10,631 bases of DNA from a virus (lineage: Duplodnaviria; Heunggongvirae; Uroviricota; Caudoviricetes): IMG/VR virus record IMGVR_UViG_2703718802_000006; one strand, written 5' to 3'. Of the stretch, positions 1 through 10,631 are shown in pieces. Below the pieces are notes generated by a model. That model saw only the letters and a program-made list of their open reading frames with translations, did not search any database and was not told the origin of the DNA. Numbering within the stretch: position 1 is the stretch's first letter; each line of letters opens with the position of its first letter. The translations under genes and the position numbers were made by a program.

Positions 1-1375
1 GCCCAATAACACCACGCACCGCCCCGCCACCCTTCAGCACTTGCGTATCAGTGCCGACCAGAGCGGGAAAATCACCGCTATCTCACATGAAAGCTGGTCT
101 GGAAACCTGCCCGGCGGCACGCCGGAAACGGCGGTACAGCAAAGCGAATTACTCTACGCCGGGGCGAATCGTCATACCGGCCTGCGGCTCGCCACGCTTG
201 ATTTGCCGGAAGGGAACGCCATGCGTGCGCCCGGCGAAGCCCCCGGTCTGATGGCGCTCGAAATCGCGATCGACGAACTGGCGGAAAAAGCGGGCATCGA
301 TCCCGTCGAGTTTCGCATCCTGAATGACACTCAGGTTGACCCCGCCGACCCGACGCGCTGCTTCTCTCGCCGTCAGCTTATCGAGTGCTTGCGCACCGGA
401 GCGGATAAATTTGGCTGGAAGCAGCGCAACGCCACACCCGGACAGGTGCGCGACGGGGAGTGGCTAGTCGGCCACGGTGTTGCGGCGGGCTTTCGCAATA
501 ATCTGCTGGAAAAATCGGGTGCTCGGGTTCACCTCGAACAAAACGGCACCGTTACCGTAGAAACGGACATGACCGACATTGGCACCGGCAGCTACACCAT
601 TCTGGCCCAGACGGCAGCGGAAATGCTTGGCGTACCGCTGGAGCAGGTTGCGGTTCACCTCGGCGATTCCAGTTTCCCGGTTTCTGCGGGTTCTGGTGGA
701 CAATGGGGCGCGAATACCTCCACCTCCGGCGTTTACGCCGCCTGTATGAAGCTTCGCGAAATGATTGCCTCGGCAGTCGGGTTTGATCCTGAGCAGTCGC
801 AGTTTGCCGACGGCAAGATTACCAACGGTACCCGAAGCGCCACGCTACATGAAGCCACCGCAGGCGGCAGACTGACAGCGGAAGAGAGCATTGAATTCGG
901 AACACTGAGCAAAGAGTACCAGCAGTCGACCTTTGCCGGGCATTTTGTGGAGGTCGGCGTGCATAGCGCGACGGGAGAAGTTCGGGTCCGGCGTATGCTC
1001 GCTGTGTGTGCTGCAGGACGCATCCTGAATCCGAAAACTGCGCGCAGCCAGGTCATTGGCGCAATGACTATGGGCATGGGCGCGGCACTGATGGAGGAGC
1101 TAGCGGTGGATGACCGTTTGGGCTACTTCGTTAATCACGATATGGCGGGGTATGAGGTGCCGGTTCATGCGGATATCCCAAAACAGGAGGTGATTTTCCT
1201 GGATGATACCGACCCCATATCCTCCCCGATGAAGGCCAAAGGTGTCGGTGAGCTGGGCCTGTGCGGCGTGAGCGCGGCTATCGCCAACGCGGTGTATAAC
1301 GCCACCGGTATTCGGGTACGGGATTATCCCATCACTCTGGATAAGCTGCTCGATAAGCTGCCGGATGTGGTTTAA
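1..1375 (+). CDS. paoC: Aldehyde oxidoreductase molybdopterin-binding large subunit (xanthine dehydrogenase family, PaoC/YagR-like), 5'-truncated by the window edge
   Basis: Frame is open from the window start with no stop until TAA at 1373-1375; the 444-aa track ORF (41..1375) is only the first in-frame Met. Sequence reads like the C-terminal Moco-binding domain of XDH-family enzymes. Followed 9 nt later by an XdhC-type chaperone gene with an AGGAGG SD, the paoC-paoD arrangement. High GC typical of enterobacterial core genes. Confidence 0.8.
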   Translation, partial: PNNTTHRPATLQHLRISADQSGKITAISHESWSGNLPGGTPETAVQQSELLYAGANRHTGLRLATLDLPEGNAMRAPGEAPGLMALEIAIDELAEKAGIDPVEFRILNDTQVDPADPTRCFSRRQLIECLRTGADKFGWKQRNATPGQVRDGEWLVGHGVAAGFRNNLLEKSGARVHLEQNGTVTVETDMTDIGTGSYTILAQTAAEMLGVPLEQVAVHLGDSSFPVSAGSGGQWGANTSTSGVYAACMKLREMIASAVGFDPEQSQFADGKITNGTRSATLHEATAGGRLTAEESIEFGTLSKEYQQSTFAGHFVEVGVHSATGEVRVRRMLAVCAAGRILNPKTARSQVIGAMTMGMGAALMEELAVDDRLGYFVNHDMAGYEVPVHADIPKQEVIFLDDTDPISSPMKAKGVGELGLCGVSAAIANAVYNATGIRVRDYPITLDKLLDKLPDVV

Positions 1376-1384
1376 GGAGGAACA

Positions 1385-2341
1385 ATGTCATACCCGCTTT
1401 TTGACAAAGACGAACACTGGCATAAGCCAGAGCAGGCGTTTCTCACCGATGACCACCGGACCATTCTGCGCTTCGCCGTAGAGGCGCTAATGTCCGGTAA
1501 AGGAGCGGTGCTGGTGACGCTGGTGGAGATACGCGGCGGCGCGGCGCGCCCGCTCGGGGCGCAGAGGGTGGTGCGCGAAGATGGTCGTTACTGCGGTTTT
1601 GTCTCTGGCGGCTGCGTGGAGGCCGCTGCCGCTTTTGAAGCGCTGGAGATGATGGGCTCAGGCCGCGATCGCGAAATTCGCTATGGCGAAGGTTCGCCGT
1701 GGTTTGACATCGTTCTGCCCTGCGGCGGTGGGATCACGCTGACGCTCCATAAACTACGCTCGGCACAGCCTCTGCTCGCCGTGCTGAACCGCCTGGAACA
1801 GAGAAAACCGGTGGGGCTGCGCTACGATCCGCAAGCACAATCGCTGGTGTGCCTGCCCACGCAAACCCGGACGGGCTGGAATCTCAATGGCTTTGAGGTG
1901 GGGTTCAGGCCATGCGTCAGGCTGATGATTTACGGACGTTCTCTTGAGGCGCAGGCAACCGCGAGTCTTGCAGCAGCCACAGGCTATGACAGCCATATCT
2001 TCGATCTTTTTCCGGCCTCAGCCAGCGCTCAGATCGATACCGATACGGCGGTCATTTTGCTGTGCCATGATCTCAACCGGGAGCTGCCAGTGTTGCAGGC
2101 CGCGCGAGAAGCAAAACCCTTTTATCTCGGCGCATTGGGCAGCTATCGAACCCACACGTTACGTCTGCAAAAGCTCCACGAGCTGGGATGGTCCAGGGAG
2201 GAAACAACGCAAATCCGGGCACCCGTCGGGATATTCCCCAAAGCCCGGGATGCGCATACTCTGGCACTCTCCGTGCTGGCAGAAGTCGCCTCTGTACGTC
2301 TCCATCAGGAGGAGGATTCATGCCTGCCCCCGTCGTCCTGA
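1385..2341 (+). CDS. paoD: XdhC/CoxI-family molybdenum cofactor insertion chaperone (PaoD/YagQ-like), 318 aa
   Basis: ATG at 1385 preceded by AGGAGG (1374-1379). The 318-aa length matches what I recall for E. coli PaoD, and it sits directly downstream of the XDH-family large subunit. Identification is from family-level recognition and synteny, not a search. Confidence 0.8.
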   Translation: MSYPLFDKDEHWHKPEQAFLTDDHRTILRFAVEALMSGKGAVLVTLVEIRGGAARPLGAQRVVREDGRYCGFVSGGCVEAAAAFEALEMMGSGRDREIRYGEGSPWFDIVLPCGGGITLTLHKLRSAQPLLAVLNRLEQRKPVGLRYDPQAQSLVCLPTQTRTGWNLNGFEVGFRPCVRLMIYGRSLEAQATASLAAATGYDSHIFDLFPASASAQIDTDTAVILLCHDLNRELPVLQAAREAKPFYLGALGSYRTHTLRLQKLHELGWSREETTQIRAPVGIFPKARDAHTLALSVLAEVASVRLHQEEDSCLPPSS

Positions 2342-2730
2342 TCCTTGCGGCCGGGCGTGGAGAGCGCTTTCTCGCCTCCGGGGGAAATACCCATAAGTGT
2401 ATCGGCTGGCGTCAGTCCCCGGAGGTTGCGCCTTATCGCTGGCCATTTGAAGAAAACGGGAGAACTTTCGACCTTGCGATTGAACCGCAGATTACGACTA
2501 ATGATCTGCGTCTGATGTTGAGGCTGGCTCTTGCCGGCGGAGGAATAACAATTGCCACTCAGGAAACTTTCAGGCCATATATTGAAAGCGGTAAGCTTGT
2601 ATCGCTGCTTGATGACTTTCTTCCACAATTTCCGGGCTTCTATCTGTATTTCCCACAGCGTCGCAATATTGCACCAAAGCTCCGCGCCCTGATTGACTAC
2701 GTCAAAGAATGGCGGCAGCAATTGGCTTAA
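2320..2730 (+). pseudogene. yagP: LysR-type transcriptional regulator remnant (YagP-like): effector-binding C-terminal domain only, no HTH domain; chimeric N-terminus
   Basis: ATG at 2320 with AGGAGGA just upstream gives a 136-codon ORF overlapping the paoD 3' end by 22 nt. Residues after about position 30 read like the C-terminal substrate-binding domain of a LysR regulator, but the N-terminal DNA-binding domain is missing. The first ~22 residues (MPAPVVLILAAGRGERFLASGG) instead resemble the G-x-G-x-R motif of MobA/MocA-type nucleotidyltransferases. The longer track ORF 2188..2730 has an N-terminal extension that lies out of frame inside paoD and is not credible. Confidence 0.55.
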
Positions 2731-2856
2731 ATGTCTGCACCTGCACTGCCTGATGTCAGAACAGTATTTTGATGAATTGCCAAGGTTACAATGGCACAAA
2801 TACGGCACAGGAGGAAACGTGGTGTATTTAAATATGGGGTAACTCTTTGATTTTAA

Positions 2857-2875
2857 TGGTGCCGATAATAGGAGT
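2857..2875 (-). other. attR core: 19-nt 3'-terminal fragment of tRNA-Thr (thrW-type, ptwF-like), not a functional tRNA
   Basis: Minus strand 2875->2857 reads ACTCCTATTATCGGCACCA: the end of the T-arm, the 3' acceptor strand TATCGGC (complementary to a 5' GCCGATA), discriminator A and CCA. The match to a tRNA body stops at 2876 (C where the T-stem needs G). The CCA end faces the pao/yagP flank and the 5' side faces the integrase, as expected for the duplicated core at the attR end of a tRNA-integrated element. Confidence 0.7.
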
Positions 2876-2876
2876 G

Positions 2877-2990
2877 TAACACGCGATAAATCTTGTGTTC
2901 GGGTCTTCTTCTACGACCTTCGCAACTACCTGATTTAACGATTTTTACGCACACTGATAATCTGGCATTCATCATGCACATGATAAACGC
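2877..2990 (+). repeat. Imperfect direct repeats of a CAC-N-(T)GATAA motif in the att arm between core and int (candidate integrase arm-type sites or int promoter elements)
   Basis: cacgcGATAAa at 2880-2890, cacacTGATAAtc at 2951-2962, cacaTGATAAac at 2977-2988. The last two are 26 bp apart and lie immediately upstream of the int start. Confidence 0.3.
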
Positions 2991-3014
2991 CCCTAAACTT
3001 TAACGGGGTGGAAA

Positions 3015-4229
3015 ATGAAATACAAGCCGGATCAATACATCATCTCTGATAGTTACGGAGTTTATTACGTCAGGATCTCAATTCCTATATGGCTTCGTAA
3101 TGCATTTGGTGGAAGAAAAACTCTCGTCCGTAGTCTGAACACTTCCGATCTTCGTGTGGCACGTAGGAAGCGTGATGTTATAGCAGACGAGTTTCACCAC
3201 ATCAGGCAAATTGCAGAGCCACCAAAACCGGACAGCCTGCAGGACACAATCAGCTATCTAAAGAGCGTTGCTAAGTACGCAAAAGCTGCCCCGAAAGCAT
3301 CAGCGCCAATTATCTCCCAATGCCCCTCTCTGAATAAGATGTTGGAGATTTACCTCACGCATAACGCTGATCGCCTGAAAATTGGAACATTAAGCAAGAC
3401 CAGGAAAGCCGTAGAACTGTTTCTGAATTACCTGCGAAAGAAGGATGTGGAACTAAACGATATCAACCGTACCACCGTTACAGGCTGGCTTGATCATCTC
3501 CGAGAAACAAAGGCAGTCCAAACAGTGGCTAACTATCTTTCTGCAATGGCAAACATTCTCGATCTTGCCTCTTCCCGATACCAGGACGCCCCACAGCTGG
3601 AAAGTAACGTATTCAGAGGGCATAAACTCAACACAGCGCAGAGCCGCCAGAGTTACGAGGCATTCACGGACGAAGAAATTACGAAGCTCATTAGCACGTT
3701 TAACAAGTTAGGAGAGGACGAATTAAGGGATTTAAGCGCCATAGCCGCTTATAGCGGAATGCGCATCAATGAAATAGCCAGTTTGAAATCTGACAATATC
3801 CGTGAAGTTGAGGGGGTGTTATGTTTCGATGTATTGGAAGGAAAGACAGCTAACGCTTCCAGGCTAATCCCATGCCATAGTGCGATTAAAACAATGGTCC
3901 TGGAACGCTGCCAGAAGCCGCACAACGGCTTTTTATTTTACCGTGCAAGTGTGACCAAGAGAGAGGACGGCAAGCGCTCCTCATGGCACGTAAACCGCTT
4001 TGGACGGCTTAAACGCGATATTCTCCCAGGGCAAGAAAACAAGGTGTTTCACTCGTACCGCCATGCCGTGATCAGTAAGCTAAACGCCGCCGGAGTGGAT
4101 GAATCTCGTATTGCCTTGCTCGCGGGCCACTCATTTGGAGAAACTGAATCTTTCAAGACGTATTCGAAATCCGTTCCTGAGCGAATAGTGAAGGAACTAA
4201 AAGAATATATCGAATTAATCAAATATTAA
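3015..4229 (+). CDS. Tyrosine-type site-specific integrase (phage integrase family), 404 aa
   Basis: ATG at 3015 with a G-rich SD (GGGGTGG). Box I Arg context (AYSGMRINEIASL), box II HxxR (FHSYRHAVISKL), a downstream LAGHS His and a C-terminal Tyr (FKTYSKS). The N-terminus (GVYYVRISIP...GGRKTLVRSLNTSDLRVARRKRD) matches the pattern of N-terminal arm-binding domains of island/P4-type integrases. Located next to the tRNA-derived att core. Confidence 0.9.
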   Translation: MKYKPDQYIISDSYGVYYVRISIPIWLRNAFGGRKTLVRSLNTSDLRVARRKRDVIADEFHHIRQIAEPPKPDSLQDTISYLKSVAKYAKAAPKASAPIISQCPSLNKMLEIYLTHNADRLKIGTLSKTRKAVELFLNYLRKKDVELNDINRTTVTGWLDHLRETKAVQTVANYLSAMANILDLASSRYQDAPQLESNVFRGHKLNTAQSRQSYEAFTDEEITKLISTFNKLGEDELRDLSAIAAYSGMRINEIASLKSDNIREVEGVLCFDVLEGKTANASRLIPCHSAIKTMVLERCQKPHNGFLFYRASVTKREDGKRSSWHVNRFGRLKRDILPGQENKVFHSYRHAVISKLNAAGVDESRIALLAGHSFGETESFKTYSKSVPERIVKELKEYIELIKY

Positions 4230-4243
4230 AATACCTTAAATGT

Positions 4244-4270
4244 GAGGGGGAATCCCCCTCTATTTTATTT
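4244..4270 (+). terminator. Bidirectional rho-independent terminator between convergent int and the 92-aa gene
   Basis: Perfect inverted repeat GAGGGGG-aat-CCCCCTC (4244-4260) followed by TATTTTATTT. The T-tract overlaps the stop codon (4265-4267) of the convergent minus-strand gene. Confidence 0.7.
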
Positions 4271-4543
4271 ATACCATACACTTTGCATATATTGCGATGT
4301 TTCAGATGAAATATTATACCAATATGCATAATTATTTGTTGCATCTACAACTATCAATTTATCATCACTATCCATCGCTTTATGAACTATTTGCGCTGCC
4401 TGTTCAGAATTGTAATGTGAATTAACATACCAATTTGATTCTGTAACTTTGACTGCTACGCCCAATGATTTAATAGCTTCGTAAACTGCTGGATAGTTTT
4501 TAGTTTTGATCAAGTCATAGGTTACAAAAAGATTGTTAGCCAT
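4265..4543 (-). CDS. Hypothetical 92-aa protein, AT-rich; predicted alternating beta/alpha pattern loosely reminiscent of Cas2/VapD-like ferredoxin-fold small nucleases (speculative)
   Basis: ATG at 4543-4541 with GGAGAG SD 8 nt upstream; stop at 4265. N-terminus LFVTYDL followed by a helix-like segment then VAVKVTESNWYVNS resembles the beta1-alpha1-beta2 start of Cas2/VapD-type proteins. Aromatic-rich C-terminus. No confident family assignment. Confidence 0.6.
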   Translation of the reverse strand: MANNLFVTYDLIKTKNYPAVYEAIKSLGVAVKVTESNWYVNSHYNSEQAAQIVHKAMDSDDKLIVVDATNNYAYWYNISSETSQYMQSVWYK

Positions 4544-4601
4544 TTTATTCTCTCCAGAGATTCAAAAGAATAAGCGCCGCTATAGGCGCTTTGAGATGTT
4601 T

Positions 4602-4730
4602 TTATTTCTTAGCTTTCTTGGTAGGGATTTTGATAGTTTCAGTTACCGTAGTGTCAGGATGTCTTTTAGCTTCAATGGGCTTAACAAACTGACCAGTTAT
4701 CGCAGAACGAACTACTGTTTTCTTAGCCAT
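4602..4730 (-). CDS. Hypothetical 42-aa basic small protein (MAKKTVVRSAITGQFVKPIEAKRHPDTTVTETIKIPTKKAKK), first gene of a two-gene cassette
   Basis: Internal ATG at 4730-4728 preceded by GAGGTG SD (5-nt spacer). The longer track ORF from 4832 adds a Cys-rich, low-complexity N-terminal extension with no SD and is unlikely. Lys-rich termini suggest nucleic-acid binding. A hairpin (4572-4591) plus U-rich tract separates it from the 92-aa gene. Confidence 0.4.
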   Translation of the reverse strand: MAKKTVVRSAITGQFVKPIEAKRHPDTTVTETIKIPTKKAKK

Positions 4731-4881
4731 AAAACACCTCATCTTGGAGATAAAGAGTGAACTGCTTACCCTTTTAAGAATAAGGGACAAACGAAGCGGC
4801 GTCAAAGAAAAAACACCACATATACACATCATTTACAAAACAAGCGCAATATGTGGTATCTCCATGCGATTTACATCACAA

Positions 4882-6753
4882 TCACCCCCCTGTGCTGCTC
4901 TGACCGCTCAAGGCTGACAAGGTGAGCGACTGTGTAAAACTGGCTTGTGAGGCTCTCGCCTGGAAATCAATGTAATCGCTCAGCCTTGAGCTATCGCTGG
5001 CGATAGTTAGCGGAACAGACGCTTCAAGATTGAGATTGAATACAGGTGCAAGATTGTACGCTGGCGCACTATTGGTGCTGGTTAGGGATGATATAGCAGA
5101 ATCACGAAGCGCTCCCCCTTTCAGAGAATCACCATTCAGGCCGTATTGTTCTACCGCTGTCCCTGTAGGCTGATCATCTATCCCTAACCAACCTTTAACG
5201 GCATGACCTACACTACGGCTGTCCCACCCTGTCTTGTCCTGCACCCAATCGGCAGCACTGTTGGCACTTCCTGTAACAGCACCATCATACAAACTCTGTG
5301 CCGCTGGCTTATCGCTACCAGTGAACCATTGAGGGAAACGTTCTTTCAGCCCTGCATTGATATCACTCACAACACTGGAAATCTCACCCACAAACCCAGT
5401 GATTTCTTTCGAGAGATTGCCTAAGCCCTCTCCAAGCATTCCCGCCGCTTCGGTGATAATTTTGGTTTTCCTTACCAGATCGTCGCCCCCATCGGCAAAG
5501 CCTTTCATCCAGCCTGTAAACAACTGATTGTCTATTCCATTCATCAGATTACCCATAGCAACACTCAAATCGCCATACTCATAAACCTGCTTGATCATTT
5601 CGTCGTTCAGCGTCTGACCGGACTCAATGAGAGTTCTTAGCGTCTTGTTATACTCTGCACCGTTGTTCATGAACATATCGGTGTAGTGCATCAGGTCATC
5701 ACCTAAACTCTCAATCAGCGTACCAATCTGAGCCTGTGACATACCACGGCGTTGCCCTTCATTCACCGTAGCTTGAACAAAATCGAGTGGTGAATCTTGG
5801 AACTTGGAAATCTGATCCTTACTCCATCCAAATTTGTTCATTATCGACGTAATGCCACCATCCCCACCCTTCCATTCGCCATTCTTCATTTGAGCATCGT
5901 TAACAGTCATGGCGAGGCGTTCACGCACATCTTTCATGTTATCGACGGCTTTTGAGGTATTAGCTGAATCAACACCGTGTTGCTGTCCCCAGGCCACCAT
6001 CGTTTTTATGGCGTTTGGGTTGGTTTTCACACGTTCACTCATTCTCACCAGTTCGAGGTTATCATTCCCTTTGTCAATAATTCGCTGCCCCACTCCGAGG
6101 GAGCCAGCCGTTAACGCAAGGCTTCCTAATACCCCACCACCGACGATAGGAGCATTCCCGCCCTTCTGAGCCTTTAGCTTAGTGGCTGCTGCGGCATACT
6201 GGGTACGCTGTGCCTGTGTCACTTTGGCTTGCTGTGCGGCTTCTCTGCGTAACAGGGTTACACGCTCACGAATAGATGCGTTCATACGGGCACTGGTCAG
6301 ATTGCCTTTGGCAAATTCCTCTGTTTGCTGACGTATGAAACGTAACGCTTCATATTGAGATTTAAGATCAAGTCCGTATTTACCTTTAATTCCTGACACT
6401 TGTAGCCCTGCATGGCGAAGTTTAAGCTCGGCTGTCTCTTGGTGCTTCTGTAGCTGCTGCTTCGCTTTCAGATTGGCCTTTTCATCCCTGGCTTTCTGCT
6501 TCTCTGCCGCACGTTGGGCTTTCATTTCCTTCGTATCACGAGGTTTATCATTAAAACGTGCATCATCGGCTTGTTGACGAGCTTTCTGTCTGCGCTGCTT
6601 CTGAGCCTGGAAGCGAATCTTGGGATCGGCTATTTTCTGGAAGTGCTTTTGAAGGTTATCCGCTGCGGCTTTAGCCAGAGCAATGCTCTGCTTATCCACC
6701 ACGAATGTAACCGTATTGCGGATCTGACTGACCGAAATATCAAGCATCGCCAC
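4882..6753 (-). CDS. Phage tail tape-measure-like protein (about 621-623 aa): N-terminal Lys/Gln/Ala-rich coiled coil, Gly-rich hydrophobic segment, globular C-terminal part
   Basis: Track start at 6753 is a GTG; an in-frame ATG lies at 6747-6745, with an 8-nt overlap with the upstream 65-aa ORF. The coiled-coil stretch (KAQRAAEKQKARDEKANLKAKQQLQKHQ...) and the GGGVLGSLALTAGSLGVG segment are typical of tape-measure proteins. The family call is by composition and architecture only. Confidence 0.55.
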   Translation of the reverse strand: MAMLDISVSQIRNTVTFVVDKQSIALAKAAADNLQKHFQKIADPKIRFQAQKQRRQKARQQADDARFNDKPRDTKEMKAQRAAEKQKARDEKANLKAKQQLQKHQETAELKLRHAGLQVSGIKGKYGLDLKSQYEALRFIRQQTEEFAKGNLTSARMNASIRERVTLLRREAAQQAKVTQAQRTQYAAAATKLKAQKGGNAPIVGGGVLGSLALTAGSLGVGQRIIDKGNDNLELVRMSERVKTNPNAIKTMVAWGQQHGVDSANTSKAVDNMKDVRERLAMTVNDAQMKNGEWKGGDGGITSIMNKFGWSKDQISKFQDSPLDFVQATVNEGQRRGMSQAQIGTLIESLGDDLMHYTDMFMNNGAEYNKTLRTLIESGQTLNDEMIKQVYEYGDLSVAMGNLMNGIDNQLFTGWMKGFADGGDDLVRKTKIITEAAGMLGEGLGNLSKEITGFVGEISSVVSDINAGLKERFPQWFTGSDKPAAQSLYDGAVTGSANSAADWVQDKTGWDSRSVGHAVKGWLGIDDQPTGTAVEQYGLNGDSLKGGALRDSAISSLTSTNSAPAYNLAPVFNLNLEASVPLTIASDSSRLSDYIDFQARASQASFTQSLTLSALSGQSSTGG

Positions 6754-6937
6754 CGCCTTTCTTACTCACCAGATAATTAAGTGCATCTGATACACTACGC
6801 CCACGATGTAATAACTGACGTAGATGACCGTGATCTATTTCAAGCACACGACACACTCCCGCCAGATTTAATAACTCTTCTGCTGTTTCAGCATTTACGG
6901 CGAGGTGAAGCCCCGCGCTTTTTACAATCACTTGCAT
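6740..6937 (-). CDS. Hypothetical 65-aa protein, translationally coupled to the downstream tape-measure-like gene
   Basis: ATG at 6937-6935 with AGAGGAAAG SD (about 8-nt spacer). Stop TGA at 6742-6740 overlaps the ATG (6747-6745) of the next gene in the arrangement ATGCTTGA. Confidence 0.45.
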   Translation of the reverse strand: MQVIVKSAGLHLAVNAETAEELLNLAGVCRVLEIDHGHLRQLLHRGRSVSDALNYLVSKKGGGDA

Positions 6938-6960
6938 TTATCTTTCCTCTTATTCTGGAA

Positions 6961-6995
6961 ATAAAAAAGGGCGGGAACACTGGGGAGATGTTCCC
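6961..6995 (-). terminator. Rho-independent terminator downstream of the capsid gene (second of two tandem hairpins)
   Basis: On the minus strand: GGGAACA-tctccccag-TGTTCCC (6995-6973) followed by GCCC and TTTTTT (6968-6963). A second hairpin (7019-7046, stem AGCCTGA/TCAGGCT) lies just 3' of the capsid stop, with a weaker U-tract. Confidence 0.65.
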
Positions 6996-7058
6996 AACGT
7001 TCACACGCCCTATTCAAAAGCCTGATTATTGCCTGCGGGTCAGGCTCCCGCTTGCTCA

Positions 7059-8090
7059 TTAAGCAGTGATGGTGATCTTCACTTGCATACCTAACGCATG
7101 GTTCACTGGTAATGCGCTGTTTTCGTGCATAACGTGGTAAGCATCGCCGCGCTCGCTCAGGTAGCCCCAAGAGTAGTATTCAGCAGGTGCAGCATCGATC
7201 AGCGCGAAGTTGCCAGAGGCAGCGCCGTAGATGTTCTGATAAGCATTTGTGCCTTTACTGAATACCGGAACCGCCACCATGTCAGCATCATCTGGCATCT
7301 GTGCAAGGATCAGCGGATCTGTCACTTTAACAATGTCGATAGGCGCACCAGGTAGGCTAAACGTACTAACACCAGGGAGAAGCTCGTGACGCTGGTAGAA
7401 TAGGTTACGGTCGTCATATGGCGCTACATACTGGAACGCCTTAGACATACTGTCAGAGAAGCGAATCTGGCTAAATGCAGCAGGTTTAGCGAATACGATC
7501 ACTCGTTCAATCTGTCCAGCCAATCCACCTGCGGCAGCCTGAACTTTGTCTAAGATGGCATCAAAATCCTGTGCCGCTGTCGCTGTGCTCACGCTGGCTG
7601 TCATTGGCACCACACCGAACAGTTCAGCATAAGAGATCAGTAGGTCATCAGTTGCAGGCGTATAAACTTCACCTTTGAACAGAGCACGGGCCAGGTAGGA
7701 TTCACGGGTACGAAGATAGGCAATCTTATGTTTCCCTGTGTACTCGGTGTACAGGTCGGTAACGGTTTGCTCGTAGTCCGTGCCTTGCACCCTTTTCCCT
7801 TGTACGTCTACTGGTTTGAAGGTGTCTTCCCTCGCAAACCAAGGGATCTCCACCAAATATTCTTTACCATTCTGACGCGCGGTAGTGTCGTGGCTTGATG
7901 AATAACGACTCTGCGGGGTGTTAAACAGGCTGTAGTTATCATCCAGAAGCTGTGTCACCACCACTTTCGGATTCTGAACACCTACCCCGTCGAAGAGGTC
8001 GAGAGCATTCATAAGATAGTTACGTTCCGGCAGAGCCTGGAAGATTGGCGCTAAATCGACCATCTCACGCCCAATTGCGATTTTACTCAT
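7059..8090 (-). CDS. Phage major capsid protein (lambda gpE-like family), 343 aa
   Basis: ATG at 8090 with AAGGAAG SD. Size (343 aa) and sequence character fit E-type major capsid proteins, and it sits immediately downstream of a gpD-like decoration gene (D-then-E order as in lambda). Strong terminator downstream. Confidence 0.75.
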   Translation of the reverse strand: MSKIAIGREMVDLAPIFQALPERNYLMNALDLFDGVGVQNPKVVVTQLLDDNYSLFNTPQSRYSSSHDTTARQNGKEYLVEIPWFAREDTFKPVDVQGKRVQGTDYEQTVTDLYTEYTGKHKIAYLRTRESYLARALFKGEVYTPATDDLLISYAELFGVVPMTASVSTATAAQDFDAILDKVQAAAGGLAGQIERVIVFAKPAAFSQIRFSDSMSKAFQYVAPYDDRNLFYQRHELLPGVSTFSLPGAPIDIVKVTDPLILAQMPDDADMVAVPVFSKGTNAYQNIYGAASGNFALIDAAPAEYYSWGYLSERGDAYHVMHENSALPVNHALGMQVKITITA

Positions 8091-8106
8091 TATTTATCTT
8101 CCTTGA

Positions 8107-8466
8107 TTAAGAGGTGAAGAATGGACGGCATACGAACCCTTTGGATTCGAGCGTGGTGATAGCTGCGGCGTGATTAGCTGCGTGCAGGTTGTCGGCTTTC
8201 AGTGCTACGAAGCTGCCAACATTAGGCGCACGTAGGACATTCACGGTTTTACCGTCGCCAGCACTCACGAAATCACTTACCACCACAAAGGCATCATCGC
8301 CGGAGGTGTATAGAGCGCCATCAGCGCCGATAACATCGCCGCATTCAATATCTGCTGGCAGGTCGAAAACACGGCCTTCTACGACTGCAAAAGAATCAGT
8401 GGCGTAGCTCACTACGTCAGTGAAACTCTTACGAATTGGGAAAAGTTCGGTTAGGTCTACAATCAT
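8107..8466 (-). CDS. Putative head decoration protein (lambda gpD-like), 119 aa
   Basis: ATG at 8466 overlaps the stop of the upstream 71-aa ORF (ATGA), with AAGGAA SD. Small Gly/Ala/Val-rich beta-type protein directly preceding the major capsid gene. Assignment is by position and composition only. Confidence 0.5.
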   Translation of the reverse strand: MIVDLTELFPIRKSFTDVVSYATDSFAVVEGRVFDLPADIECGDVIGADGALYTSGDDAFVVVSDFVSAGDGKTVNVLRAPNVGSFVALKADNLHAANHAAAITTLESKGFVCRPFFTS

Positions 8467-8678
8467 TGTTGTTTGATTTCCTTGGATTTGATTGCGATCC
8501 GTTCCTGCATACTAAGTTGAGGTGTGTCCTCAGAAGGGAAATACTGGTCTACAGCTTTTTCTATTTCTTCAACGGTACATCCTGCCATTTCAGCCACTTT
8601 AGCTATTAACTCAGGATTAACTTGAATCACTTCGGATTTGTATTTTAGGATTCGGTCGCGATTGTTTATTAAGAACAT
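8463..8678 (-). CDS. Hypothetical 71-aa protein, first gene of the capsid operon; possible HTH-like segment (LIAKVAEMAGCTVEEIEKAV)
   Basis: ATG at 8678 with GAAGGAACAACACA upstream. Four-nt overlap with the decoration gene start. Function unknown. Confidence 0.5.
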   Translation of the reverse strand: MFLINNRDRILKYKSEVIQVNPELIAKVAEMAGCTVEEIEKAVDQYFPSEDTPQLSMQERIAIKSKEIKQQ

Positions 8679-8747
8679 TGTGTTGTTCCTTCGCGTTATA
8701 ACTGCGTTTATCCTTCCATTAATAACGGAAGTGTTACATGCAGATTG

Positions 8748-8771
8748 TTAAAAAGGGGCGATTAAGCCCCT
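8748..8771 (-). terminator. Rho-independent terminator (minus strand) at the 3' end of the ~670-bp non-coding region, just upstream of the capsid operon promoter
   Basis: Minus strand reads AGGGGC-ttaatc-GCCCCT followed by TTTT (stem 8771-8766 / 8759-8754, T-tract 8753-8750). Confidence 0.6.
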
Positions 8772-9347
8772 GGAGAATATGCCCTTGTTAGAAAGCATTC
8801 TGTTAAAATCATTTTCGTTTCGGAGGATTATGATGTTAAAGAAAGGTTTCTTGAAAAAATGAAGGGCGCAACTGTTACGAATAACAGAAGTAGGATCGCC
8901 CGTCATTGCTCCCACTTCAAAACAGAAGCCCTTCTGTCATGGCGAGAAGTGGGAATGGAATTTCTTATCACCCTGGAATAGTAATAAGAGATTGCCAGCC
9001 TGAACGTAACTACCACTGACGGCGTTTATTCAGTCTGACTGCTTATAATCCTAACGGGGTTATAAGGTTTAGAGCACGGAATATGCTCTCTGAAAGAGAA
9101 TGTGCGCGGTGATTGTTCGTTACCACCCGACACAAGTGGGAACGCCCGCGCCACCCTTTGGAACTAAACACAACAAAGGAAAACAACCAGCTTTCAGAGA
9201 GGATATTCAATGGGAGAGAGCGCCGCCTATGGGAAACGGCATTCTCAGGGAGTGCGTATTGTTATACGAGGGTGGAGTGATTCTAATACCTACCCTATAA
9301 CTTATTATGACACAAATAGCACAATATGTCAAGATATTTCGTAATAT

Positions 9348-9686
9348 TTATGTTATAGCGCATTCTTCCGCGATCTGGATGGCAAGCTCTCCGAGTTCAA
9401 CGGTGATGTGTTCCATAGCGAGGGCAAGCTCCTCCATATCATTGGCAATGCGCCACGCCTGATCCACGGTGACGGTATCCCCGTTCATCTGCACCAGGTG
9501 CTCTACAGCAGCATTCCAGTGTTCAAGGGCGGTGATTGCCTGTTCAGTGTATTGCAGCGCTTCCAGGAGCGCGGAGGGCGTTCTCTCACACCACGCCCTA
9601 TTAACAAGCCACAGGGCTGGTAGATGCCAAATATCGTGGAAATAGTTAATTAGGGTGTTCATGGTGTCCATAGTTTTATTATTCAT
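9348..9686 (-). CDS. Hypothetical 112-aa acidic, predicted helical protein (second gene of a coupled pair)
   Basis: ATG at 9686-9684 preceded by AAGGAA (7-nt spacer). Its start overlaps the stop of the upstream 127-aa gene as ATGAATAA. The 161-aa track ORF from 9833 is an out-of-frame extension into the 127-aa gene and is rejected. Confidence 0.5.
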   Translation of the reverse strand: MNNKTMDTMNTLINYFHDIWHLPALWLVNRAWCERTPSALLEALQYTEQAITALEHWNAAVEHLVQMNGDTVTVDQAWRIANDMEELALAMEHITVELGELAIQIAEECAIT

Positions 9687-10062
9687 TGTTGTTTTCCTTG
9701 TCGTCAAAGAGAATATCAAAATCTTGTATGTGGTGAGATAAGCCGTTAGTTTGGGAATACCCCACCCAGTCAACATAGTTTTCTGCGTATAGCTGCCACT
9801 TCTTAAGATTCGATGAATCAACACGGTATTCACGGCGGCGGCGTGGTTTATAGAAGACGTTATCCGAAGATGCTAAAACATCCTGCAATAGTTCAAACTC
9901 TGCCCCTACGGGCACCGTTGCAGGGTATTCTATTATTTCGGTGATCCATTCTCCTGGAATAGACTCTCGTGCGAGGTCTTGTAGAGAAGAGGTGTATTTA
10001 CGTTTGCTGGCGCGAGTGGCTTTTTCGATTCTAACAATGTTACTTCGTTCTTTTCGTCCCAT
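9679..10062 (-). CDS. Hypothetical 127-aa protein with basic N-terminus and acidic C-terminal tail
   Basis: ATG at 10062 with GAGGAA SD. N-terminus is Arg/Lys-rich (MGRKERSNIVRIEKATRASKRKY), there is an internal KPRRRREYR stretch, and the tail is acidic (FDDKENNNE). Stop TAA at 9681-9679 overlaps the next gene. Confidence 0.5.
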   Translation of the reverse strand: MGRKERSNIVRIEKATRASKRKYTSSLQDLARESIPGEWITEIIEYPATVPVGAEFELLQDVLASSDNVFYKPRRRREYRVDSSNLKKWQLYAENYVDWVGYSQTNGLSHHIQDFDILFDDKENNNE

Positions 10063-10076
10063 TCATTCCTCGTAGA

Positions 10077-10161
10077 GGGAAACTTCCGTGTTTTCTCGTT
10101 AATGTCCATACTGCGTAAAATGCAAATAACCAATACATAGCGATGATCATAAAAGTTTCCC
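10077..10161. promoter_or_regulatory. Pair of 9-bp inverted repeats (GGGAAACTT / AAGTTTCCC) bracketing the intergenic promoter region upstream of the 127-aa/112-aa pair
   Basis: GGGAAACTT at 10077-10085 and its exact reverse complement AAGTTTCCC at 10153-10161, 67 bp apart, inside the 109-bp gap between the 94-aa gene stop and the 127-aa gene start. Confidence 0.35.
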
Positions 10162-10171
10162 TATTGTGTGT

Positions 10172-10456
10172 TTAGAAATTAGAGTAGATAAATTCTACAT
10201 TGTCTCGTTCGATGTGTTTCAGCGTGAATGATAGATAATGGCTTTCATCGTCGATATCGATCACACCAATGTTGCGCAGCGCACGAAGCCAGAATCTGAT
10301 CCCGTTATCACTTACACTGGATTTATCAGATAGCTCTCCGTAAGAAATTTTAGTTTTTCTGCCCTTCCAGAACCAGATAAGCGCATAATAAACGCCCTTC
10401 CCGCTATCGTTGATCTGTATCTGGTTTGTGTTGTTCAATTTTATGTATTGTATCAA
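10172..10456 (-). CDS. Hypothetical 94-aa protein, putative winged-helix-type DNA-binding regulator; TTG start
   Basis: The ORF contains no ATG or Met codon. Its first codon is TTG (10456-10454), preceded by a perfect AGGAGG SD with a 5-nt spacer. The segment ISYGELSDKSSVSDNGIRFWLRALRNIGVI resembles a recognition helix plus wing. AT-rich. Confidence 0.5.
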   Translation of the reverse strand: MIQYIKLNNTNQIQINDSGKGVYYALIWFWKGRKTKISYGELSDKSSVSDNGIRFWLRALRNIGVIDIDDESHYLSFTLKHIERDNVEFIYSNF

Positions 10457-10469
10457 TTAGTCCTCCTGA

Positions 10470-10601
10470 TTAGTTCCAGTGGCGTTGTATTGTGGCGATC
10501 CCTTTCTTCATTAGTTCAGCCGTTTGTCTTTGGGTCAATCCTTTGGATTTGTGTTCCTGTACTTCTTTACGGGTGTTGTTACCTTTAACTTTCTTTCTCA
10601 C
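10470..10601 (-). CDS. Possible 43-aa helix-turn-helix small protein (GTG start), very tentative
   Basis: Minus-strand ORF from GTG at 10601 to TAA at 10472-10470 translates to MRKKVKGNNTRKEVQEHKSKGLTQRQTAELMKKGIATIQRHWN. The segment LTQRQTAELMKKGIATIQRHW has a helix-turn-helix pattern. No good SD and a non-ATG start; below the ORF track size cut-off. Confidence 0.25.
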   Translation of the reverse strand: MRKKVKGNNTRKEVQEHKSKGLTQRQTAELMKKGIATIQRHWN

Positions 10602-10631
10602 TTTCTAGACTGGCCCCCTGAATCTCCAGAC

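Follow-up and report, generated by a model that had tools for sequence, protein, structure and literature searches.

The 19 nucleotides at positions 2857-2875 of the window, as the whole stretch of 10,631 nt analyzed here is called, are very probably the distal att scar of an element of about 13.5 kb that recombined its attP with the 3′ end of the tRNA gene thrW. The junction itself is of an ordinary kind and lies at a known hotspot, thrW being listed among the most-used tDNA integration sites (PMC7545054). The window corresponds to positions 296534-307164 of the Escherichia coli RM10410 chromosome (NZ_CP042350.1), with a 100% match from window base 2, and its features are the following.

1-1375, plus strand: paoC, 3′ portion, in the core chromosome flank (GC 0.59; annotated in the identical RefSeq record)
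1385-2341, plus strand: paoD, core chromosome flank (ORF, annotation)
2392-2730, plus strand: yagP remnant, a pseudogene retaining a C-terminal LysR substrate-binding fragment (annotation; weak NCBIfam LysR-family matches; identical flank in K-12)
2731-2856: native bacterial DNA, outer arm of the junction (contiguous with thrW in empty-site genomes; identical in K-12 beside ptwF)
2857-2875, minus strand: 19-nt duplicated att core, thrW nt 58-76, from the T-loop ACT to CCA (sequence identity)
2876-3014: element-side arm 5′ of int, beginning gtaacacgcg (identical beside the same int in four different left contexts)
3015-4229, plus strand: tyrosine integrase (Int), 404 aa (Pfam PF00589, PF20172 and PF13102; phrog_1; dN/dS 0.12)
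4244-4260: GC-rich palindrome with T-runs, terminator-like, between the convergent int and p92
4265-4543, minus strand: p92, a 92-aa protein, phrog_1090
4882-6753, minus strand: tape-measure-like protein, 623 aa (phrog_16051, E=1e-96)
6740-6937, minus strand: p65, a small conserved protein of 65 aa, kept in the element family
7059-8090, minus strand: major capsid protein, lambda gpE-like, 343 aa (PF03864 over its full length, E=1e-13; dN/dS 0.08)
8107-8678, minus strand: two small conserved genes, p119 and p71 (119 and 71 aa), at the start of the capsid module
8750-9332, minus strand: sigma-70 promoter (9332->9304), structured leader of ~550 nt and intrinsic terminator (8770->8750)
9348-10456, minus strand: three small conserved genes, p112, p127 and p94 (112, 127 and 94 aa)
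10470-10605, minus strand: final 45 codons of a gene for an SF2 helicase-like protein, interrupted by IS2 (as seen against the intact copy in XYEH3934)
10606-10631, plus strand: TAGACTGGCCCCCTGAATCTCCAGAC, the putative left terminal repeat of IS2 (XYEH3934 homology extends only to 10605, and the annotation places an IS2 transposase immediately past the window)

The plus strand of 2857-2875 reads TGGTGCCGATAATAGGAGT, and its reverse complement, ACTCCTATTATCGGCACCA, is identical in 19/19 nt to nt 58-76 of thrW, which encodes tRNA-Thr (CGU). The initial annotation had recognized a tRNA-Thr 3′ end on the minus strand from 2875 to 2857, and this proved to be an exact match to the final 19 nt of the gene. 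Read off the sequence, these nucleotides occupy on the cloverleaf the three final T-loop positions, the 3′ strand of the T-stem, the 3′ acceptor strand, the discriminator and CCA, and the same 19-mer ends thrW in K-12, RM10410, XYEH3934, AR_0128 and Sakai. The tRNA body was said to be absent, in agreement with the fact that ARAGORN detected no tRNA gene in the window and that an Rfam scan of the whole window at E<=0.1 matched no family. A second copy of the core had been expected elsewhere in this genome and was found to be thrW itself (NZ_CP042350.1 276428-276503), and the integrase, placed 140 bp inside the core, does start at 3015, exactly 140 bp from it. However, the composition does not change exactly at the scar as had been claimed, since GC drops ~500 bp earlier, around 2350-2400, where paoD ends. 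The values are 0.59-0.60 for paoC and paoD, 0.50 for the yagP remnant, 0.41 for the native intergenic flank and 0.46 for the island.

Integration at thrW is supported by comparison with other genomes. A synthetic empty site, composed of the window left flank 2476-2875, the remaining part of thrW and the proA side, was contiguous in 948 of the 5426 complete E. coli genomes with 99.6-99.8% identity (e.g. ATCC 8739), which indicates that all DNA to the left of 2876 is native thrW-downstream DNA. The alignment with empty-site genomes that had been recommended thus yielded thrW and the yagP flank joined, with no island between them. The intact island is found in XYEH3934, where its genes are 99.9% identical to those of the window and where the core (L007 22356) and thrW (35884) lie on the same strand 13,528 bp apart. 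In AR_0128, which together with eight related genomes carries an 89%-identical variant of the island spanning 13,703 bp, core and thrW are in direct orientation 13,703 bp apart. Therefore, the core is indeed duplicated at the distal end of the element, as had been proposed, with the direct 19-nt repeat and thrW bounding it in both strains. Additionally, the inner junction, in which the core is followed by gtaacacgcgataaatc and then by int, is unchanged whether the outer flank is yagP, as in RM10410 and XYEH3934, a CP4-6-like ykfI end, as in CFSAN051542, or, as in AR_0128, the integrase end of another prophage, and this constancy across outer flanks shows the arm to be part of the integrase-bearing element. 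This type of core-arm-int junction occurs in 248 of the 5426 genomes, and the particular island of the window in 13.

The description of the junction as an attR was sustained as regards the exact thrW scar, the empty site and the adjacent Int, but not as one end of an intact pair in this genome, since in RM10410 the pair is inverted and the element truncated; for a clean attL/attR pair one must turn to other strains, namely XYEH3934 and AR_0128. The element is cut in the helicase-like gene by the IS2 end at 10606-10631, beyond the last base of homology with XYEH3934 (10605). The 86 kb that surround thrW in RM10410 do not contain the thrW-proximal 5.7 kb of the element, and RM10410 was not among the matches listed for this segment in the complete-genome collection. 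In this strain thrW occupies the plus strand at 276428-276503 and the scar lies 23 kb off on the minus strand, the ecp-pao-yagP-scar-int block being inverted relative to proA-thrW. Because the element is incomplete and its partner site inverted, simple excision with thrW is no longer possible in RM10410. Within NZ_CP042350.1 276428-307230, ISVsa5 is found on one side of the inverted block and IS2 on the other, and genes located between ecpR and ykgE, present in other strains, are missing in RM10410.

From the anatomy of the element and from established knowledge of tyrosine integrases, we infer that Int (3015-4229) is the catalyst and that the crossover falls inside the 19 bp. Int would recombine attP with thrW within this identity block, which extends from the T-loop to CCA. 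At the proximal end, an intact thrW would be rebuilt with element-supplied DNA, because the element brings the identical 19 nt, and the original 19 nt would be displaced to the distal end, 140 bp 5′ of int, together with the native downstream flank and yagP/pao. All tyrosine-recombinase domains are present in the 404-aa Int (a DUF6538 N-terminus, a SAM-like domain and the catalytic domain), and its dN/dS of 0.12 relative to the AR_0128 variant indicates purifying selection.

The element-side arm carries an inverted repeat, AACAC-N12-GTGTT, at 2878-2899 and, 35 bp from the core, a 14-nt block, CTACGACCTTCGCA (2911-2924), equal to thrW nt 39-52, for which the chance expectation is 6e-5. In the sense orientation, attP resembles the 3′ half of the tRNA with the T-arm GTTCG replaced by 35 nt that contain AACAC-N12-GTGTT. 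The elements of FORC 064 and 90-9280 retain this arrangement, CTACGACC again lying at a 35-bp spacing, and its maintenance despite an Int only 52% identical argues for constraint, perhaps imposed by the binding of the integrase or of an accessory protein. A k-mer scan of the reconstructed attP returned the weak candidate arm repeats TTTTTACG and TGTTCGGG, which are not claimed as sites, and no excisionase was identified in the element. Williams reportedly defined, in 2002, classes of tRNA sublocations used by tyrosine integrases, a T-loop class among them. The present block likewise begins within the T-loop and extends to the 3′ end, with regeneration of the tRNA. In comparison with that class, however, it is unusually short at 19 nt, and the element arm has the displaced 14-nt copy of thrW nt 39-52, as if the 3′ half of the tRNA had been divided within the T-loop.

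The statement that E. coli K-12 has a comparable junction at one end of CP4-6 was accurate, the K-12 yagP flank being identical up to the core and followed by 49 nt of thrW and intF. The end of CP4-6 is annotated at 297205, with intF reading inward from the scar, and this attR (ptwF) shares with the window the site, the outer flank of yagP remnant and paoD, the strand of the scar and the inward integrase. However, the CP4-6 scar extends over 49 nt into the anticodon stem, whereas the identity of the window scar stops in the T-loop after 19 nt, and the gene content of CP4-6 is entirely unlike that of the window island. The suggestion of a distinct occupant also agrees with the integrases, since the 404-aa Int aligns with the 466-aa IntF over 176 aa at 20% identity (E=0.056), and the two are unrelated beyond the generic fold. 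This lack of relationship, combined with the different tRNA sublocation, implies that two integrase lineages share the thrW hotspot, with CP4-6 (49 nt) and Sakai Sp2 (47 nt) on the anticodon side and the window element (19 nt) on the T-loop side.

In O157:H7 Sakai, the lambda-like Sp1 and the P4-like Sp2 are in tandem at thrW, parted by partial thrW repeats, and the same tandem logic holds for the window element in CFSAN051542 and AR_0128. On the other hand, the internal repeat in Sakai is of the anticodon-loop type and measures 47 nt instead of 19, and Sp2 encodes psu, sid and primase of P4, which are all missing from the window island. An identity of the window element with Sp1/Sp2 was considered and rejected, these being different elements. 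More generally, elements that are unrelated to one another (CP4-6-like, lambda-like, P4-like and the capsid-bearing family of the window) accumulate in tandem at thrW, parted by partial thrW copies of 19, 47 or 49 nt depending on the integrase type; such copies lie at L005 12019 and 24711, L006 12019 and 25722, and L010 8041 and 18627. Sakai also has several additional genes between yagP and paoD, and its yagP encodes a full-length LysR regulator of 299 aa (L010 31658-32557), the gene being a truncated pseudogene in the window and in K-12.

Two further explanations of the scar can be set against integration of attP at thrW. A chance likeness to thrW in AT-rich intergenic DNA would gain some plausibility from the shortness of the match; however, the 19-mer occurs a single time in the window, where 0.01 matches would be expected even with 3 mismatches tolerated, and the flank beside it coincides exactly with the DNA downstream of thrW in the empty-site genomes, which renders such a coincidence scarcely conceivable. 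It is also very improbable, if to a lesser degree, that the scar is a CP4-6 scar (ptwF) shortened by deletion, beside which the integrase DNA arrived independently through IS activity or homologous exchange, the 19-mer then not being the att core of this element. Several observations would suit this derivation: the outer flank matches that of K-12 ptwF exactly, the 14-nt thrW-like block at 2911-2924 might pass for part of a broken 49-nt scar, and the RM10410 region is strongly IS-rearranged. Nevertheless, it is contradicted by strains that have the same core-arm-int junction with an outer flank other than yagP, by intact copies that end at thrW with the same 19-nt repeat, and by the element with a 52%-identical Int, in which the same 19-nt core and 35-bp spacer precede CTACGACC. 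In addition, relatives located at tRNA-Gly and tRNA-Leu genes also have a tRNA 3′ repeat beside int.

The element that integrated at thrW belongs to a family whose members include the window (2876-10605), the XYEH3934 copy (L007 22356-35902) and those at L006, L008, L009, L011, L013, L015, L018 and L031. Its hosts are Enterobacteriaceae (E. coli, Klebsiella, Enterobacter, Citrobacter and relatives), and the capsid family is spread across Enterobacterales. From the tRNA side, the gene order begins with small ORFs and a tyrosine recombinase of ~186 aa that has the catalytic domain only (a resolvase in one lineage), followed by an Arc-like protein of 54 aa and a replication module with either an SF2 helicase-like or a lambda-O-like initiator. 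It continues with p94, p127, p112, a long untranslated region, p71 and p119, and ends with the gpE-like capsid gene (343 aa), p65, the tape-measure-like gene (~620 aa), a variable gene and the integrase gene. The variable position is occupied by the 92-aa phrog_1090 protein in the window and by a Dit-like tail/baseplate protein in other lineages.

The integration site also varies within the family. In Klebsiella pneumoniae, the element is bounded by tRNA-Gly(CCC) and a 3′ repeat of 24 nt located 93 bp before int, and that of Buttiauxella lies at tRNA-Leu(CAA) with a 43-nt repeat; one E. coli lineage adjoins ygfI, without a tRNA. Compared with the window, the K. pneumoniae element has a capsid protein 72% identical, a tape-measure-like protein 67% identical and an integrase 33% identical, and uses another tRNA. 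The family is modular. In the metagenome contig L011 (ERZ28645923 scaffold_795), the Kiwa genes KwaA/KwaB are encoded at 9566-11108, flanked by a p63 ORF that follows the capsid gene and by an ORF of 155 aa beside int; they stand at the place of the tape-measure-like gene, indicating that this position can hold anti-phage cargo.

The C-terminal ~390 aa of the tape-measure-like protein match the putative tape-measure protein of phAPEC8/phi92-like myoviruses at 38-41% identity. These virulent phages of 145-150 kb account for nearly all of the 139 phage matches of the protein. The center of the gene has 66-69% nucleotide identity to these phages, in which the adjoining capsid gene is without a relative. 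No portal, protease, terminase or head-tail connector was detected by Pfam or PHROG in the window, in XYEH3934 or in relatives, a search that very divergent small proteins could escape. Beyond the int, tape-measure-like, capsid and replication genes, no ORF exceeds about 136 aa, so that none is big enough for a portal or a large terminase. Neither a packaging signal nor terS was found in the element, and the AlphaFold2 model of p127, considered as a possible small terminase, reached a pLDDT of 51 with an alignment of 25 sequences. Searches of the island proteins with PADLOC and NCBIfam were uninformative; a weak Cas2-like PADLOC match of p92 (E=3e-4, 19 bits) was not trusted. The p92 protein shows 66% amino acid identity between variants with saturated dS, and yet it is 89% identical to its K. 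pneumoniae homologue. The IMG/VR capsid-gene matches all lie within provirus contigs of 21-63 kb and are uninformative as to free forms, and neither a free nor a packaged form of the element was seen. Of the metagenome contigs of ~13.7 kb, which resembled possible free genomes, L011 (13,773 bp) was inspected and, having a cut flanking gene beyond int, was taken as a chromosomal fragment. In the literature searched, no description of this capsid-bearing element family was found, and its proteins are annotated as hypothetical.

The untranslated region that precedes the capsid module is a further property of the family. A near-consensus minus-strand promoter, TTGACA-17-(TG)CATAAT (9332->9304), whose -35 hexamer is almost invariant (10/11 family members), is followed by ~550 nt in which no ORF is conserved; an intrinsic terminator (8770->8750) then lies 70 nt before the first capsid-module gene. 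The leader folds more stably than shuffled controls (z = -6.8), and homologous leaders occur in elements whose capsid proteins are only 55-59% identical. In an alignment of 11 sequences from several genera, RNAalifold predicted 119 pairs, of which 31 show compensatory double changes; paired cells amounted to 94%, in comparison with 41-52% when partners were slid, and none of 500 shuffles reached the observed covariation. The terminator hairpin varies in sequence and keeps its form across members, and the leader RNA has no Rfam match.

The organization of this region looks like that of an antitermination-controlled late operon or of an RNA-based switch. In the late operon of lambda, the leader is composed of PR′, 6S RNA and tR′, and the immunity of P4 is RNA-based. 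In the element, too, the structural genes are directly preceded by an untranslated leader and a terminator, behind a strong promoter of constitutive appearance. However, its leader of ~550 nt is highly structured and covarying and has no sequence or Rfam relation to these systems, and, unlike in lambda, no antiterminator was identified in the element.

It is possible, and here tentatively suggested as the simplest reading, that the occupant family represents an undescribed, helper-dependent, phage-satellite-like element. A fuller version of this suggestion, to be regarded as somewhat more doubtful, depicts satellites of Enterobacteriaceae of 13.5-13.9 kb that reside in tRNA 3′ ends (thrW, tRNA-Gly CCC, leuX) or at ygfI, supply their own lambda-E-like capsid, tape-measure-like protein (in some cases also a Dit-like tail protein) and initiator, lack portal and terminase, and carry a leader RNA before the structural operon. 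With structural genes and neither portal nor terminase, such a family would depend on a helper phage for packaging, and perhaps also for antitermination; the phAPEC8/phi92-like myoviruses, as the closest phage relatives of the tape-measure-like protein, could be the helper. Similarly to cf-PICIs and other satellites (P4-like, PICI, PLE), the element is small (~13.7 kb), has its integrase at one end, and possesses its own replication initiator, its own major capsid gene and a variable defense slot (Kiwa in L011). In contrast to cf-PICIs, the PF03864 capsid gene was detected without portal, prohead protease, terminase or head-tail connectors. The element further differs from known satellites in its lambda-gpE-like capsid, its tape-measure-like gene and the Dit-like tail gene of its relatives. 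The P4 markers Psu, Sid, Delta, alpha primase-helicase and AlpA had no Pfam or PHROG match in the window or in the XYEH3934 copy, and the family does not match the gene set that defines any one of these groups (P4-like satellites, PICIs, cf-PICIs and PLEs). Indirect hints of helper-dependent packaging are the narrow size range, the presence of structural genes where no packaging machine was detected, and the relationship of the tape-measure-like gene to phAPEC8/phi92-like phages.

The same att junction could also border the remains of an ordinary temperate phage in decay, with the structural genes as leftovers. This is unlikely, even though the RM10410 copy is cut by IS2, the capsid and tape-measure-like genes are the only structural ones, and IMG/VR places such regions in larger provirus calls. 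Decay is difficult to reconcile with a gene order and content kept across genera while protein identity falls to 22-55%, or with the size of five intact copies (13.5, 13.7, ~13.7 after subtraction of an IS3, 13.8 and 13.9 kb), which is maintained despite differing integration, replication and cargo modules. In addition, int, p127 and the capsid and tape-measure-like genes have dN/dS values of 0.08-0.23, nothing close to the capsid protein was found in 50,697 phage records (the best being 23-27% identical), and the covarying leader RNA is conserved. Such features fit a packaged element that depends on a helper better than they fit the random decay of a prophage.

With this element, the thrW hotspot gains one more occupant and a second, shorter core type, of 19 nt and of the T-loop class, and the RM10410 case illustrates how an att scar can be left stranded by tandem accretion and an apparently IS-mediated inversion. 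The broader value of these findings lies in the occupant family and its leader RNA and not in the scar. The family possesses a leader RNA that is supported by covariation and absent from Rfam. If the family does prove to be a satellite, it would widen the range of satellite strategies to elements with their own capsid and tail-length genes and no packaging machine, and would represent another carrier of defense cargo such as Kiwa.
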